The notes under the pieces: generated by a model
Database searches by the model: none
What the model was told of the DNA's origin: nothing
The model's input: only the letters and a program-made list of their open reading frames with translations
Made by a program: the position numbers and the translations under genes
In this document: piece after piece, positions 6,012 through 11,558 of the stretch
Numbering within the stretch: the first letter of the stretch is position 1
How the letters are laid out: every line of letters starts with the position of its first letter
Origin: a virus
Reading direction: 5' to 3' (one strand)
DNA length: 11,865 nt
Virus genome (UHGV): UHGV-1591674

Positions 6012-6794
6012 GTGACAACAAAGAATCGACACGGTCTTTCTCGGCAAGTGCCTGCAGAGGTTAAACGAGTTATCAGGCAAAGATGTGGATTTGGCTGCGT
6101 GATCTGTGGCTTCGGATTCTATGAGTACGAGCACTTCGATCCAGATTTTGCTGATGCTACCGAACACAACCCTAATGGAATGACATTGTTATGTTCTCAA
6201 TGTAACCAGAAACGAGCCAGGGGCAGACTGTCCGCTGAAAAGGTTGCTTCAGCTAATGCTCATCCTAAGTGCCTTCAACAAGGGTTTGCGAATGAGCTTT
6301 TTGATTTTCATAGCGAACCATTGGAAATAGTTTTGGGTGGATTAACGTTCTACAACTGCGAGCACCTTATAGTAGTAAATGATAGGCCTATCTTGTCTGT
6401 TCAGTCATCTCCTGAACCAAACTCTCCAATGTTACTCTCGGGAGTATTCTGCGATGTACTAGGAAGGGAGATGTTAAGAATCCATGAGAATGAATGGTCT
6501 GTTAATTTAGATAATTGGGATGTTGACTGTGAGGGGCCGAGAATAACCATTAGAAGTGCTCCCCGTCAGATTGCCCTTGTTTTGAAAATGAATCCCCCGA
6601 GGGGAATAATTGTAGAGCGATTAGACATGACTTTTGAGGGGGTAAGATTTATAGGGGATGAGCAGAACTTGCGATTTACTATGGATGGAAGTAACTGGCA
6701 TAAGTGGTCTGGCTGCTCAATGAGGAACGGCTATGTAGGTATAGCCATTGAGACTAGGCCAAGAGCGGCAAACGATCCTATGTATATATTATGA
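6012..6794 (+). CDS. HNH endonuclease-domain protein (N-terminal zinc-finger HNH, C-terminal domain of unknown function), AT-rich acquired gene
   Basis: 260-aa ORF with GTG start at 6012. N-terminal motif RCGFGCVICGF...YEYEHFDP...HNPNGMTLLCSQCNQKR fits the CxxC...H...N...CxxC HNH fold. Hand-sampled 60-nt lines give about 40-47% GC against about 60% in a flanking phage gene. Preceded by a terminator. In frame with the downstream methyltransferase fragment, separated by a single TGA (6792-6794). Confidence 0.8.
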   Translation: MTTKNRHGLSRQVPAEVKRVIRQRCGFGCVICGFGFYEYEHFDPDFADATEHNPNGMTLLCSQCNQKRARGRLSAEKVASANAHPKCLQQGFANELFDFHSEPLEIVLGGLTFYNCEHLIVVNDRPILSVQSSPEPNSPMLLSGVFCDVLGREMLRIHENEWSVNLDNWDVDCEGPRITIRSAPRQIALVLKMNPPRGIIVERLDMTFEGVRFIGDEQNLRFTMDGSNWHKWSGCSMRNGYVGIAIETRPRAANDPMYIL

Positions 6795-6806: not shown

Positions 6807-7061
6807 TTGTTAATACTGCAACCACATGAGCTTTACCGTGCTCAGGGCTTCCCTGAGTGGTACATCATTGACCAGGACTATCGGGGCAAGAAGTACGCAA
6901 AAGACAAACAAGTTGCCCGCTGTGGTAACGCCGTACCACCGCCGTTCGCTGAAGCGCTGGTCCGGGCTATTTACCGGAGCTTTGTCAGCAGAAAGAAATT
7001 GCAGCTTAATGTCCGAGTTTCAGAGCAGGGTGTAACAAATCCTGCTACTTCAATGACGTAG
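6807..7061 (+). pseudogene. C5-cytosine DNA methyltransferase C-terminal fragment (motifs IX and X only)
   Basis: PHELYRAQGFPEWY and RCGNAVPPPFAEALVRAI correspond to C5-methyltransferase motifs IX (LQGFP) and X (GNAV), matching the C-terminus of the full enzyme at 8717..10210 (RLQGFPD...AIGNSMAVPV). No motifs I, IV or VI precede it. A second diverged copy of its 3' end lies at about 7452-7580. Confidence 0.55.
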
Positions 7062-7344: not shown

Positions 7345-7447
7345 TCCACATGCCATCGCCCTGAACACACGGTGGCATGCATCCGGCACTTTAACGGAAA
7401 CGTTAAAGTGCAAAATACAATTCGAGCAATATTCAACCAGTTAAAGA

Positions 7448-7587
7448 TGGCGAATACCACCGCCATTTCGTGCCTTCTGCTGTTTCTATTACCCATTACG
7501 CTAATCCTGCCCAAACATCAGCTCGCTGAGGCGCTGGTTAGGGCTAACCTACAGGAGCTTTGTCAGCATAAACAAATAGCGGCGTAA
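7448..7587 (+). pseudogene. Degenerate second copy of the C5-methyltransferase 3' end
   Basis: DNA at 7452-7461 (TACCACCGCC) and 7522-7580 aligns with 6933-7005 at roughly 80% identity, interrupted by a ~50-bp insertion. The track ORF 7372..7587 ends in AEALVRANLQELCQ, mirroring AEALVRAIYRSFVS in the 6807..7061 fragment. Confidence 0.45.
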
Positions 7588-7604
7588 TAAAACATTGCTA
7601 ATTC

Positions 7605-7632
7605 AACCCACTACGGCGGGTTTTCTTTTTTT
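7605..7632 (+). terminator. Rho-independent terminator
   Basis: Stem AACCC (7605-7609) / GGGTT (7618-7622) followed by TTCTTTTTTT (7623-7632). Confidence 0.5.
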
Positions 7633-7694
7633 CCTACTGACAGAAAATTAACAATTTGTGCTCTTAAAACGTTGATCATTTTCGTGCATAGGTA

Positions 7695-7714
7695 TACTGT
7701 ATAAAAATACAGTA
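7695..7714. promoter_or_regulatory. LexA box (SOS operator) overlapping the dinI-like promoter
   Basis: Perfect 20-bp palindrome TACTGTATAAAAATACAGTA matching the CTGT-N8-ACAG LexA consensus. It lies 19 nt upstream of the ATG of a DinI homolog. -35-like TTGATC at 7672-7677 and -10-like TATACT at 7693-7698 overlap the box. Confidence 0.75.
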
Positions 7715-7732
7715 TATGCAATGGAGGCCATT

Positions 7733-7969
7733 ATGAAAGTTGAATTAACCATTGATCGCATGAAAGAACTTCCTAAAGGCGCGGTACCAGCACTGGAGAA
7801 AGAATTGCTTAAGCGTCTGAATGATCACTATGACAATTGCAGACTCACAATCCGCCGTGCCGGTTCAGATGGGTTAAGTGTTTTTGGCGGTGACAAGGAC
7901 GACAAAAAGAAAATTGAATCAATCCTCCAGGATACCTGGGAAAGTGCAGACGAGTGGTTTGTTAACTAA
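7733..7969 (+). CDS. dinI: DinI-family DNA-damage-inducible protein
   Basis: GGAGG at 7723-7727 five nt before ATG 7733. Product ends ILQDTWESADEWFVN, closely matching E. coli DinI (ILQETWESADDWFV). A LexA box sits immediately upstream. Confidence 0.85.
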   Translation: MKVELTIDRMKELPKGAVPALEKELLKRLNDHYDNCRLTIRRAGSDGLSVFGGDKDDKKKIESILQDTWESADEWFVN

Positions 7970-8090
7970 CACCCCTTAGCTGGTAGCTCCTGCTGCCATT
8001 TTTTAAATCGAGTTTCCGCATCGCCTCGCGCAATTATTGCCAGGTAATTCAGGTCGATTCAGGTGTGGGAATCTTTGCAAGGGGCATCTC

Positions 8091-8273
8091 ATGCAAATTC
8101 CGGATGATTTAATCCTAGGGTTGCCGGAGCACACTGGCCCGGTTCTGATTTATTTCGTGAAGGGGAGCGTGGTGAGGGGATTCGCCTTACGTAAAGATGA
8201 ATTTGTGACGTCTTTACGGGCACTGGAAGAGGCCAGAAAGAAAGCTGGTCTTCCTGTTTCTGATGCAGGATAA
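8091..8273 (+). CDS. Hypothetical small protein downstream of dinI (candidate antirepressor; speculative)
   Basis: 60-aa ORF from ATG 8091 with AAGGGG at 8079-8084; the track ORF opens at 8037 but lacks a ribosome-binding site. Short direct repeats ATTCAGG at 8046-8052 and 8057-8063 lie upstream. Confidence 0.55.
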   Translation: MQIPDDLILGLPEHTGPVLIYFVKGSVVRGFALRKDEFVTSLRALEEARKKAGLPVSDAG

Positions 8274-8417
8274 GTTGGGTTATACTCAACACGGGTCTGA
8301 ACAGCCCGCTGAGTAACACTGCGCCAACCGGGAAAACGCGATGGCGCATAAAACTGAATTACCCCATTCACACCGTTCCTTCGTGAGCGGTGTCGCTGTT
8401 TGTGCTGGTGGTGCAGC

Positions 8418-8720
8418 ATGAGCAGATCAAAGACCAAAGCCGAAAAACTTCATCTTTCCCGCGTAGCCGGGCTGGGTTGTATTGTCTGCAAAAACCTGAA
8501 GCTGGGTGAAACCCCAGCAGAGATACATCACATCCGAACTGGCCAGGGAGTTGGCCAGCGCGCTGACAATTTCAAAGTTATTCCTCTTTGCCCAATCCAT
8601 CACCGTCAGGGCGGACACGGCATAGCCATTCATGCTGGCCGCCAGTCCTGGGAAAACAATTTCGGTACTGAAACAGAGTTGCTGGTGCAGGTTCTCTACG
8701 AACTGGGGGAATCAGCGTGA
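8418..8720 (+). CDS. Ref-like recombination-enhancement HNH-type nuclease (small phage HNH protein)
   Basis: Start at ATG 8418 (GGTGGTG upstream). Product contains CIVC...EIHHIRTGQG...CPIHHRQGGHG, a CxxC/HH pattern typical of Ref-family HNH proteins. Stop overlaps the GTG start of the methyltransferase (GTGA at 8717-8720). Confidence 0.65.
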   Translation: MSRSKTKAEKLHLSRVAGLGCIVCKNLKLGETPAEIHHIRTGQGVGQRADNFKVIPLCPIHHRQGGHGIAIHAGRQSWENNFGTETELLVQVLYELGESA

Positions 8721-10210
8721 GTATTACTTATGGTTCAGTATGTAGTGGAATTGAGGCTGCAAGTATAGCGTGGGAGGTTTTGGGCTGGCGACCGTCATGG
8801 TTCTCTCAGTTCGATCCTGAACACAATTATAAAAACGGTCCAGATTTCCCATCCGCTGTTCTGGCGTATCGCTGGCCGCACGTAACAAACCTCGGTGATA
8901 TGACCAAAATCGCTGCAGCAATACGGCGCGGAGAAATCCAGGCACCAGACATTCTGGTTGGTGGCACACCGTGCCAGGCATTCAGCATCGCTGGTTTGCG
9001 CAATGGTCTGACTGATTCCCGCGGTCAATTAACTCTCGCCTTTGTAGAACTGGTAAACGCAATAGATGAAAAACGAAGAGAACAGGGAAAACCTCCCGTC
9101 ATTGTCGTCTGGGAAAACGTACCCGGAGTATTCAGCAGCAGAGATAACGCTTTCGGATGTTTTCTTGCAGGGCTTGCCGGCGAAAGCCGTGAACTGGAAT
9201 CACCAGGGCGAAAATGGACAAACGCTGGTTATGTGCTGGGACCAGAAAGGGCTGTCTGCTGGCGAGTGCTCGATGCTCAATTTTTCGGAGTGGCCCAACG
9301 ACGCCGCCGTGTGTTTGTTGTCGCAAGCGCTAGAACCGATATCGATCCCGCAAAAATACTTTTTGAGTCCGAAGGCCTGCGCCGGGATACTCCGCCGCGC
9401 CGAAAAGCGGGGAAGGGCATTACCGCAAATACTGGGCGTCGCATTGCTAACGGTAGCCACTGGGATGGGGAATATAATCCACATCCAACCCTCAACCAGT
9501 CACACAACATTGGGGGCATAGGTCAAAGCAACCAGGAATTATTCAGCCAGCGCGGAGGTGGAATCGTTGGTGTCTTTCGCATGCGGGCATTTGGTGATTA
9601 TGTTAATGATGAAACCTCATCCACTGTTAAAGCGCGCGACCATAAAGATGCAACCGATCTCACTGTCACTTATTCGGACGTCAGCAGGACATTGCTTGCC
9701 AAATCTAATGACAGCATGGCTGAAGATTTGGATACATATGCCATTCACGGCACACAAGACCCTGGCACGCTCAAAGACATGGCTCATACACTGGGGCGCA
9801 ATCATGGGCAGGAGAATGCCGTTGCTTATGCATTCAAGGCTGGTCAGGGTGCAAAAGCTGGTGGCATTGGCTGGGCAGAGGAACAATCCCCGACACTGAC
9901 TGCCGCCAGCAGTGGATCGAATTTATCCCCTTCAGTGATGAAAAATATGACCGTTCGCCGCCTGACGCCTGTCGAATGCGAGCGCCTGCAGGGCTTCCCC
10001 GATAACCACACTTTAATCCCCCGGGGTAAGCGCAAGCAGATTACGGCGGATGAATACGCCTATGTGCGCCACCACAACCCAAAGATAACAGCAGAGGAAG
10101 CCTACCGACTGGCGAAAGATGGTCTGCGCTACAAAGCGATCGGCAACAGCATGGCCGTACCGGTTATGCACTGGATCGGTAAAAGAATTAAGGAGGCTCT
10201 TAATGCCTGA
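8717..10210 (+). CDS. DNA (cytosine-5)-methyltransferase
   Basis: 497-aa ORF carrying motif I (GSVCSGIEA), motif IV (GGTPCQAFSIAG), motif VI (VVWENVPG), motif IX (RLQGFPD) and motif X (AIGNSMAVPV). About 245 aa separate the ENV region from motif IX. Translationally coupled to the upstream Ref-like gene and to rusA downstream. Confidence 0.9.
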   Translation: MSITYGSVCSGIEAASIAWEVLGWRPSWFSQFDPEHNYKNGPDFPSAVLAYRWPHVTNLGDMTKIAAAIRRGEIQAPDILVGGTPCQAFSIAGLRNGLTDSRGQLTLAFVELVNAIDEKRREQGKPPVIVVWENVPGVFSSRDNAFGCFLAGLAGESRELESPGRKWTNAGYVLGPERAVCWRVLDAQFFGVAQRRRRVFVVASARTDIDPAKILFESEGLRRDTPPRRKAGKGITANTGRRIANGSHWDGEYNPHPTLNQSHNIGGIGQSNQELFSQRGGGIVGVFRMRAFGDYVNDETSSTVKARDHKDATDLTVTYSDVSRTLLAKSNDSMAEDLDTYAIHGTQDPGTLKDMAHTLGRNHGQENAVAYAFKAGQGAKAGGIGWAEEQSPTLTAASSGSNLSPSVMKNMTVRRLTPVECERLQGFPDNHTLIPRGKRKQITADEYAYVRHHNPKITAEEAYRLAKDGLRYKAIGNSMAVPVMHWIGKRIKEALNA

Positions 10211-10562
10211 ATATCCAATTACACCCGTCGGTAAGCCCAGAATGACGCGCGCTGACAAATGGAAAAAGCGCCCCGAGGTTCTGCGTTACCGGGCTTTCTG
10301 TGATGAAGTTCGTTTGCAGTGTGTTGAGCTACCGGAAAGTGGTTCACATGTCACCTTCATTCTTCCGATGCCAGCAAGCTGGAGCAAAAAGAAACGGGCT
10401 GAGTTAAACGGCAGACCTCACCAACAAAAGCCCGATGTCGATAACCTTACCAAGTCATTACTGGACGCATTGTTTGAGGATGATGCTCATATATGGGATG
10501 TCCGGGTATCAAAATCATGGGGAGAAACCGGGAGAATAATTATTGAGGAGCTAGAAGCATGA
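10203..10562 (+). CDS. rusA: Holliday-junction resolvase RusA
   Basis: ATG 10203 overlaps the methyltransferase stop (ATGCCTGA). 119-aa product with the RusA signature KPDVDNLTKSLLDALF. The track ORF opens at 10119 but its N-terminal extension is out-of-frame methyltransferase sequence. Confidence 0.85.
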   Translation: MPEYPITPVGKPRMTRADKWKKRPEVLRYRAFCDEVRLQCVELPESGSHVTFILPMPASWSKKKRAELNGRPHQQKPDVDNLTKSLLDALFEDDAHIWDVRVSKSWGETGRIIIEELEA

Positions 10563-11158
10563 CGCCACGCCAACGCAGACTACAGCAGTCAGCATTTGAA
10601 AAAGCAGCAGCTGCGCCGCGTAAAAGCTGGCTGGGTAAATGCATTCTCCTGACGGGGATCCAGTCCGGATGGATTAAATCCCTGCTCACTACATGGGGTG
10701 AGGGTGTGGGAGGAAAAACCGCACCCCGTATGCCGCGAGGCCATGCGTGCTGGAATGTGCTTAAGGGACGGAACTGGTCAGATAAGGCGTTAGAGCGATT
10801 CACCGTTGCGTTAAATCAGGCGAGAGAAGAGGGATTCCGTGGACAGCAGGCAATGAACAGGGCACATAGCATTCTCTGGCCCCAGTCACCTGCCAGTGTA
10901 ATTGACGAGGCCCTGCATAATGACGATGTCGATTTTGTTGAGCAATGCGTGCTGCAGGCGCTGAATATAAACGATCCGGTGTATGTGGTAGGTCTTCAGT
11001 ATTACACCACCCGAAAAAAAATCTCAGACATAACCCGGGAACTGCAGGCGATTGCGCCATGGTTAACTGACGGGGAGGCGAGAAAGCGCGTGCGCTGGTG
11101 CCTGGAAATATTCAGAGCAAAGGTCTTTTTGGAAGCACGCAAACAACTATCTGAATAG
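10559..11158 (+). CDS. Late-gene antitermination protein, Q-like (tentative)
   Basis: 199-aa ORF, ATG 10559 overlapping the rusA stop (ATGA). Sits immediately upstream of a strong promoter, terminators and a holin-like gene, which is the canonical Q position. Confidence 0.55.
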   Translation: MTPRQRRLQQSAFEKAAAAPRKSWLGKCILLTGIQSGWIKSLLTTWGEGVGGKTAPRMPRGHACWNVLKGRNWSDKALERFTVALNQAREEGFRGQQAMNRAHSILWPQSPASVIDEALHNDDVDFVEQCVLQALNINDPVYVVGLQYYTTRKKISDITRELQAIAPWLTDGEARKRVRWCLEIFRAKVFLEARKQLSE

Positions 11159-11207
11159 ACTCAATGAACCATTTTTTGGCTATTAGTGCTATTTTTTGAT
11201 AATGGAG

Positions 11208-11235
11208 TTGAAAACGGGCCAGAAAATCAGATAAT
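11208..11235 (+). promoter_or_regulatory. Candidate late promoter (PR'-like): TTGAAA-16 bp-GATAAT
   Basis: -35 TTGAAA at 11208-11213, 16-bp spacer, -10 GATAAT at 11230-11235, located 50-80 nt downstream of the Q-like gene stop. An intrinsic terminator follows about 70 nt downstream, giving the classic PR'-qut-tR' layout. Confidence 0.45.
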
Positions 11236-11305
11236 CAATTCATGCTTGGCAGAGCTGCGCCACGATGGCAGCGACGAAAAGCGAACAATTTGAATATAAT
11301 GAGAA

Positions 11306-11326
11306 CCCCGCCAGCGCGGGGTTTTT
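11306..11326 (+). terminator. Rho-independent terminator (tR'-like)
   Basis: Stem CCCCGC (11306-11311), loop CAGC, stem GCGGGG (11316-11321), then TTTTT (11322-11326). Confidence 0.7.
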
Positions 11327-11335
11327 GCTTTCCGG

Positions 11336-11390
11336 CGATACGACAGGGGTATTCGCGAACGTGCTACGGCACAGTACCCCTGTCATATCG
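11336..11390 (+). repeat. Long inverted repeat (16-bp arms, 1 mismatch) forming a potential stem-loop in the late leader
   Basis: Left arm CGATACGACAGGGGTA (11336-11351) and right arm TACCCCTGTCATATCG (11375-11390) are reverse complements apart from one base, separated by 23 nt. No T-run follows. Confidence 0.5.
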
Positions 11391-11441: not shown

Positions 11442-11558
11442 CATTTCAGGCTCACGGGTATCACTCACTGCGTGCTTTGTTGATAAATCCAGCCCGTGAA
11501 GCCTGAATCTATTTCCCCTCATTCCTGAGAGGACTCACAGCAATTAAGAGGGGGCTAA

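Follow-up and report, generated by a model that had tools for sequence, protein, structure and literature searches.

The 11,865-nucleotide stretch of UHGV virus genome UHGV-1591674 analysed here (the window) carries a LexA operator, a dinI homologue and a gene for a 60-amino acid protein of the Rem family, together with an immunity region that encodes a repressor of the DicA type. We consider it likely that the Citrobacter prophage to which it belongs is induced after DNA damage through the LexA-controlled Rem-family protein, which would inactivate the uncleavable DicA-type repressor. In favour of this interpretation are homologies, comparative statistics and a gene order shared with two systems studied by experiment (the Gifsy prophages of Salmonella and the Rem-DicA pair of Escherichia coli prophage Qin). 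Four things are observed directly: the features of the sequence, the families to which the encoded proteins belong, the conservation of the LexA box among related loci and the near-exclusive pairing of Rem-type genes with DicA-type repressors. The predicted system would thus be Gifsy-like in its working but, by sequence, a member of the Rem/DicA pair family and not of the GftA family. The induction strategy as such is already known, and the present case is a further example of it. What it adds, modestly, is that Rem-type antirepressors are usually under LexA control, that three antirepressor families share the dinI socket, each with its own repressor family, and that an attenuator or coupling structure may separate dinI from the antirepressor gene.

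The window is identical in sequence to positions 1911–13775 of locus L008 (assembly GCA_013425705.1), and the NCBI records that name the identical 60-amino acid protein are from Citrobacter freundii. It spans a lambdoid prophage from the immunity region to a Q-like gene. The immunity and early part comprises the genes for the DicA-type repressor, a P22_Cro-like protein, a YdaT-like protein and DnaT/P-like replication proteins, while the nin-like region holds the LexA box, dinI and the Rem-type gene, followed by a C5 methylase, RusA and the Q-like protein. Lysis, terminase and portal genes are present in the flanks, and the prophage is apparently complete as far as sampled. Coordinates of the features discussed below are collected in Table 1. 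An earlier reading of this DNA, made from its letters alone (the sequence-only reading), had described several of them, and each feature that it described was found where it had placed it, to within a few bases.

The LexA operator, TACTGTATAAAAATACAGTA, matches TACTG(TA)5CAGTA at 18 of 20 positions. The perfect core CTGT-N8-ACAG occurs once in the window, within this operator, and once in the 20-kb locus L008, so that the search for additional LexA boxes suggested by the sequence-only reading returned no second perfect one in either. The longer pattern TACTGT-N8-ACAGTA arose in none of 200 dinucleotide shuffles; the box is unique and far beyond chance expectation. It overlaps the −10 element of the predicted dinI promoter, in agreement with the earlier claim that a perfect LexA box controls a DinI homologue. 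A consensus promoter scan missed this promoter because its 15-nucleotide spacer is too short. The layout of promoter and operator aligns column by column with those of Gifsy-2, mEp237 and two diverged viral contigs. Likewise, the terminator-like element just upstream of the promoter has counterparts at the equivalent place in Gifsy-2, mEp237 and locus L038, and terminators preceding the LexA box have been described in the Gifsy prophages (PMC3121763). The dinI start was placed at ATG 7733 rather than at ATG 7721 because of the GGAGG at 7723–7727; the NCBIfam DinI score of the product (89.2 bits) lies under the equivalog curated cut-off of 111. No known RNA family was found by an Rfam scan of 7400–8800.

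The repressor matches the NCBIfam model NF007257 (transcriptional repressor DicA) along positions 1–135 of 135 with 216.1 bits against a cut-off of 101, and has 61% identity over the full length with E. coli K-12 DicA (E 4e-58), both proteins having 135 residues. Residues 1–72 match P22 C2 in its N-terminal DNA-binding domain (E 3e-18), giving an architecture of a P22 C2-like helix-turn-helix followed by a short helical C-terminal part; matches to Protein Data Bank (PDB) structures are confined to the N-terminal helix-turn-helix. The sequence-only reading had pointed to a short repressor that lacks an S24 domain and is therefore unlikely to cleave itself, and had named a cleavage site or a peptidase fold as the discovery that would overturn it. 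Neither was found: the Pfam search gave HTH_3 and no match to Peptidase_S24 even at E 0.1, and direct reading of the protein revealed neither AG nor CG as a dipeptide. Self-cleavage stimulated by RecA is hence not to be expected. By comparison, λ CI, P22 C2 and LexA have both a C-terminal S24 peptidase domain with a Ser/Lys dyad and an Ala-Gly or Cys-Gly site. DicA and the Gifsy repressors have already been grouped as non-cleavable and antirepressor-controlled (PMC3121763 and PMC10448788). Having no S24 domain, the repressor of the window would be overlooked as SOS-responsive in searches that rely on that domain.

The small gene that the sequence-only reading had placed after dinI is present and encodes 60 amino acids. 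In public records it is unannotated or called hypothetical. Its membership in the Rem family follows from several matches. Precomputed annotation of the identical protein (P0001) assigns it to the Pfam family PF27490 ‘Rem’, while our local Pfam scan gave no match with a copy of the database that lacks the PF27490 model. The protein falls into phrog_340 (2.6e-10), as does the Rem of a Rac-like phage; its identity to K-12 Rem is 54% across a 41-residue core (BLASTP E 5e-12), and it gave a tblastn match (E 3e-7) to a gene annotated as ‘rem: prophage antirepressor’. Translation from ATG 8091 is indicated because AGGGG precedes it at 8080–8084 and homologues begin at the same MxIPDD. A 78-amino acid reading initiated at TTG (8037–8273) was ruled out, most homologues being 59–60 amino acids long with the same Met start. 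The family has few members: among 1.84 billion representative proteins, a profile search recovered only 52 clusters with E ≤ 1e-3, almost all of them 56–99 amino acids long. The AlphaFold2 model of the 60-amino acid protein is a β-hairpin plus a helix at a predicted local distance difference test (pLDDT) score of 80; Foldseek comparison of this model with the PDB returned nothing at E ≤ 0.001, and the sequence profile gave no meaningful match to PDB chains.

Expression of K-12 Rem was reported to derepress the DicA-controlled promoter dicBp 165-fold, and three other candidate proteins had no effect (PMC10448788). The repressor and small-protein families of Qin are those of the window. The two settings differ in that K-12 rem, located after hokD and a terminator, has neither a LexA box nor dinI, whereas the gene of the window lies in a LexA-controlled dinI unit. 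In addition, K-12 Rem has 83 residues, with an N-terminal extension of 35 residues that the window protein lacks. This difference can be turned into an argument that the 60-amino acid protein is not an antirepressor of this prophage's repressor and has instead another role, for example one linked to hok/mok, or one in modulating RecA or the SOS response together with DinI and the Ref-like nuclease encoded downstream. The similarity to K-12 Rem is indeed confined to the 41-residue core, no structural match points to a mechanism, rem adjoins hok/mok in E. coli elements of the Qin/Rac type, and an ‘Antitoxin Rem’ record exists. We nevertheless regard such a role as improbable, given the derepression of dicBp by K-12 Rem but not by the other three candidates, the same gene position as in the proven antirepressors of Gifsy, and the pairing with DicA-type repressors described next.

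We compared three types of antirepressor gene by the class of repressor encoded upstream of them, using loci whose upstream sequence extends over 7 kb or more. Among 41 loci with a Rem-type gene, 38 encode a DicA-type repressor, none a repressor of another family, and in three no repressor was found; dinI lies upstream of the Rem-type gene in 32. The 52 GftA-type loci, all with dinI upstream, contain a GtgR-type repressor in 49 cases and another family in none (none found in three). For the mEp237 gp49 type, where dinI is again upstream in all 67 loci, the corresponding numbers are 63 with a gp39-type repressor, one with a GtgR-type repressor and three with none found. These counts ignore shared ancestry. 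The pairing holds across about 7 kb of mosaic DNA, and Rem-type genes never occur with the repressor families of the other two types. In loci L020 and L021, Rem proteins that are nearly identical (97–98%) accompany DicA-type repressors 53% identical to that of the window; exchange by recombination has thus taken place, though confined to the DicA-type family. The pattern fits a cognate interaction and the heteroimmune cross-talk described for Gifsy. Alignment of 26 distinct partner repressors locates the best conserved segments at residues about 46–70 and 91–128, with the recognition-helix region and residues 71–90 variable. Judged from this alignment, such conservation fits a cognate contact that would involve conserved parts of the repressor outside those that set DNA specificity.

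The survey of Rem-type genes covered 56 loci from GTDB genomes and IMG/VR; the GTDB genome scan gave three loci only, and the survey was therefore built on IMG/VR contigs. LexA boxes were counted in 49 non-duplicate loci, each with 700 bp or more of sequence ahead of the Rem-type gene, against a background in the surveyed loci of 0.05 perfect cores per 700 bp. Both a perfect LexA core and dinI precede the gene in 38 of the 49 loci, and four more (L015, L039, L056 and L066) have a perfect core but no dinI. In the Rem family, LexA control thus prevails (about 85% of the surveyed loci), and the core is retained in 42 of 49 loci alongside several different spacer sequences. In the four loci without dinI, the box lies 37–144 nucleotides before the Rem-type start, and in three of them at most about 70 nucleotides before it. 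Because the LexA box is kept even where dinI is missing, the small gene appears to be the regulated target. The same four loci argue against the notion that DinI itself, or a direct action of RecA on the repressor, causes induction and that the small open reading frame (ORF) is a passenger. In its favour, dinI heads the unit and is the most strongly expressed of its genes, and the antirepressor Tum of phage 186 has a DinI-like half (PMC3121763). With a repressor that has neither an S24 domain nor a cleavage site, however, we consider this explanation highly improbable.

The closest precedents for the arrangement are the operons of Gifsy-1, -2 and -3 (dinI-gfoA/gftA/gfhA-irsA; PMC3121763). Shared with them are a short non-cleavable helix-turn-helix repressor in the immunity region and, several kilobases to its right, a module consisting of a terminator, a LexA-overlapped promoter, dinI, a hairpin-bearing spacer of about 110–120 nucleotides and a small gene of 60–80 amino acids. 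In Gifsy-2 (L003), the LexA core lies at 11083–11098, dinI at 11119–11352 and, after a spacer of 111 nucleotides, gftA starts with GUG at 11464 and is followed by irsA. Induction of the Gifsy prophages depends on LexA and on the small gene; replacement of the Gifsy-2 promoter region by PBAD makes induction arabinose-dependent, with the small gene alone being sufficient (PMC3121763). The window differs in host (Citrobacter as opposed to Salmonella), in the start codon of its small gene (ATG, compared with GUG or UUG in Gifsy), in its DicA-type repressor, which is about 25% identical to Gifsy GtgR, and in the gene that follows: no match to irsA (DUF1367, as in Gifsy-2) was found among the scanned ORFs of the window, where a DUF968/RecA_dep_nuc gene is found instead. 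The suggestion in the sequence-only reading that the small gene is a candidate for a Gifsy-type antirepressor is therefore borne out by layout and by Rem membership, but not by descent from GftA, to which homology was not detected, nor by the presence of irsA. More distant parallels exist in 186 Tum, the split tum/dinI of PSP3 and Fels-2, and AntC of N15, which are LexA-controlled antirepressors that bind a repressor without its cleavage (PMC3121763). The association of an antirepressor with a DinI-like part is common to the 186 Tum-type systems and the window (PMC3121763), although in 186 the two are fused with the antirepressor first, whereas in the window they are separate genes with dinI first.

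Several observations weigh against a LexA-controlled Rem antirepressor. First, functional evidence for the Rem family is, in the available part of PMC10448788, limited to overexpression of K-12 Rem in reporter and filamentation assays. Second, a profile comparison of the Rem and GftA families with hhalign detected no homology (probability 0.06%); the comparison of Rem with mEp237 gp49 gave 2.6%, a single faint bridge (P0081, E 0.006) was seen in the comparisons of Rem with GftA and gp49, and the AlphaFold2 model of the GftA family (pLDDT 59) is too poor for a fold comparison. Third, seven of the 49 Rem-type loci have neither a LexA core nor dinI, and the rem genes of E. coli (Qin, Rac, mEp460_ev081 and PhiR42_1) lie behind hok/mok and lack a LexA box. 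Fourth, the pairing counts are uncorrected for shared ancestry, and locus L011, a metagenomic contig, has an identical LexA box-dinI-Rem module (9607–10183) along with a repressor of 250 amino acids with HTH_3 and Peptidase_S24 domains (2171–2923). The module can therefore exist in the absence of a DicA-type partner, and the antirepressor of L011 may be a passenger or act in trans on other prophages. Finally, the hairpin with a 7-bp stem and a run of six Ts between dinI and the Rem-type gene could stop most transcripts.

The last two points lead to an alternative in which this hairpin is an efficient terminator. Only dinI would then be SOS-controlled, and the Rem-type gene would be expressed mainly from antiterminated early-right transcripts; its product, coming into play once derepression has occurred, could serve as a feed-forward lock or act in trans on other prophages, but would not be what first triggers the SOS induction. 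The sequence-only reading had noted a weak terminator-like hairpin at 7982–8007 and the lack of a clear promoter before the small gene, and both features were recovered: the hairpin spans 7981–8005, and a consensus promoter scan of 7970–8090 detected no σ70-like promoter. Consistent with termination are the folding energy of the hairpin (−11.2 kcal/mol) and the ATTTTTT that follows it, the occurrence of a GC-rich hairpin after dinI in all 15 aligned diverged spacers, and the presence of the module together with a self-cleaving S24 repressor in L011; there is also a resemblance to FsoA of Fels-1, which lacks LexA control and targets the repressor of another prophage (PMC3121763). In the relatives, however, the hairpin is kept while the T-tract is often degraded, to ATTTGTT or ATTGTTA, which is ill-suited to a strong terminator. 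Both concerns, about the hairpin and about a missing promoter of the gene's own, apply to Gifsy-2 as well. There, too, dinI is followed by a hairpin with a T-run, yet gftA-dependent induction can be driven from a promoter put ahead of dinI (PMC3121763). The perfect LexA box before the Rem-type gene of the four dinI-less relatives is likewise not explained by SOS control of dinI alone. We therefore regard efficient termination as unlikely; given the degraded T-tracts and the induction of Gifsy-2 despite a comparable hairpin, the element is probably a leaky terminator or attenuator rather than a barrier. Covariation in the stem is weak, a double change being present in one of five pairs.

The spacer as a whole (7970–8090) folds at −40.4 kcal/mol (z −3.0), a value reached by none of 200 shuffles. 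In this fold the Shine-Dalgarno (SD) sequence of the Rem-type gene, AAGGGG at 8079–8084, is predicted to be base-paired with CCCCTT at 7972–7977, which directly follows the stop codon of dinI. The closing helix between CCCCTT and the SD is also predicted in the diverged spacer type of L025–L032 but not in the Klebsiella spacer type. In a shuffle control of the SD/anti-SD pairing, the observed value was reached by 4–29 of 300 shuffles, which is no more than suggestive. If the pairing is real, translation of the antirepressor would be coupled to that of dinI, or held down.

Assuming that the Rem-family protein is a LexA-controlled antirepressor, we can outline how the switch may operate. Co-transcription of dinI and the small gene, binding of the small protein to the repressor and the induction phenotype are here predictions from sequence. 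In an undamaged cell, LexA bound at 7695–7714 would shut the promoter, and the 135-amino acid repressor would hold the lytic promoters off. After DNA damage, activated RecA would bring about self-cleavage of LexA, and the dinI promoter would fire. Transcription would run through dinI, and part of it would read past the hairpin into the Rem-type gene. The small protein would then bind the repressor non-covalently, the likely contact being the conserved central or C-terminal segments (residues about 46–70 and 91–128), and strip it from its operators, allowing expression of the lytic genes. As the repressor would remain uncleaved, the switch should in principle be reversible.

Similarity of the window to mEp237 and 52 E. 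coli genomes (94–96% identity) ends about nine bases before the dinI stop codon (at about 7960 in the window and at 9361 in mEp237, L004), and after dinI mEp237 has a different small ORF, gp49, which is GftA-related (hhalign probability 73%). In its behaviour the promoter-dinI part is thus a conserved socket, into which different antirepressor genes fit as exchangeable cassettes. Tentatively, we propose a broader model in which the LexA box-dinI unit is a common socket for at least three antirepressor families (Rem, GftA and mEp237 gp49), each near-exclusive to its own repressor family, SOS was the original trigger of Rem and was lost in Qin and Rac, and the hairpin and SD pairing form a tuned attenuator or a device for translational coupling. 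The three families have little or no detectable sequence similarity to one another. We hold this combined model to be possible, at somewhat less than an even chance. If it is correct, the attenuator or coupling device would set the level of SOS signal needed before the prophage commits to lysis.

The case links two experimentally studied branches of antirepressor induction, Gifsy in Salmonella and Rem-DicA in the Qin prophage of E. coli. The authors of the K-12 study state that the inducing signal of Rem is unknown (PMC10448788); the LexA box before Rem-type genes offers a testable answer to this question, left unanswered in 2023. Prophages of the class that combines a DicA-type repressor with a LexA-controlled antirepressor would be inducible by DNA-damaging antibiotics. 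In addition, the pairing of antirepressor type with repressor family would provide a simple rule for predicting cross-induction among the prophages of a polylysogen.

Table 1. Features of the window referred to in the text, in order of position
Feature	Position	Strand	Evidence
DicA-family repressor, 135 aa	49..456	-	Pfam HTH_3 1e-15; NCBIfam DicA 216 bits; no S24
Cro-like gene, P22_Cro family, 79 aa	539..778	+	Pfam P22_Cro 8e-13; called in identical loci
Terminator-like hairpin and T-run	7605..7632	+	Terminator scan; −7.4 kcal/mol; just upstream of SOS promoter
Predicted σ70 promoter of dinI operon	7672..7698	+	TTGATC 7672-7677, 15-nt spacer, TATACT 7693-7698
LexA operator TACTGTATAAAAATACAGTA	7695..7714	.	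Sole perfect core in window; kept in 42/49 related loci
dinI homologue, 78 aa	7733..7969	+	Pfam DinI 2e-25; NCBIfam DinI 1.8e-25; phrog_189
Hairpin (7-bp stem, 4-nt loop) and ATTTTTT	7981..8005	+	−11.2 kcal/mol, z −2.6; stem 7981-7998
Rem-family small protein, 60 aa, predicted antirepressor	8091..8273	+	PF27490; phrog_340; BLASTP to K-12 Rem
Second terminator-like hairpin, possible end of SOS unit	8370..8393	+	Terminator scan
DUF968/RecA-dependent-nuclease-like (Ref-like) gene	8418..8720	+	Pfam RecA_dep_nuc 8e-10, DUF968 8e-7; phrog_1588

Downstream of the Rem-type gene, the second terminator-like hairpin has a comparable counterpart at the equivalent place in locus L002. Beyond it lies the DUF968 gene, which comes after the Rem-type gene in many related loci as well; its place is that of irsA in Gifsy, and it may or may not belong to the LexA unit. 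The predicted antirepressor gene thus has on one side dinI, whose product binds RecA filaments, and on the other a gene for a putative nuclease dependent on RecA.

The Rem-type loci with neither a LexA core nor dinI are mostly from Klebsiella phages such as ST405-OXA48phi1.2. They carry three copies of AAATAGGGGGTTG upstream of the gene, which are possibly binding sites for another regulator. A Rem homologue of 67% identity at 8680–8940 of L002, with relatives in L054, L058 and L065, occurs with a DicA-type repressor and has no dinI or LexA box; L057 and L059 are likewise devoid of both. The L002 homologue is unannotated in its GenBank entry, the one record checked. The Qin/Rac-type rem genes of E. 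coli (L069, 4652–5130; L230; L231; L001) encode proteins of 83–86 amino acids with an N-terminal extension and lie downstream of hok/mok and a terminator; no LexA box was found near them within the loci examined, and it is the product of an E. coli rem gene that one record labels ‘Antitoxin Rem’.

Elsewhere in the window, the Cro-like gene is divergent from the repressor gene and marks the immunity region. ORF 10559–11158 was considered as an irsA homologue and ruled out, being Q-like (phrog_753). The C5 DNA methylase gene at 8717–10210 encodes 497 amino acids, of which residues 7–492 cover the 324-position Pfam model, and the protein therefore contains a large insertion between conserved motifs; the 3′ end of this methylase gene overlaps the RusA gene. 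A second C5 cytosine methylase is represented by a gene remnant, ORF 6807–7061, which corresponds to the C-terminal end of such an enzyme (Pfam positions 278–323 of 324) and is directly preceded by a Cys-rich ORF of 260 amino acids (6012–6794) with no family match.

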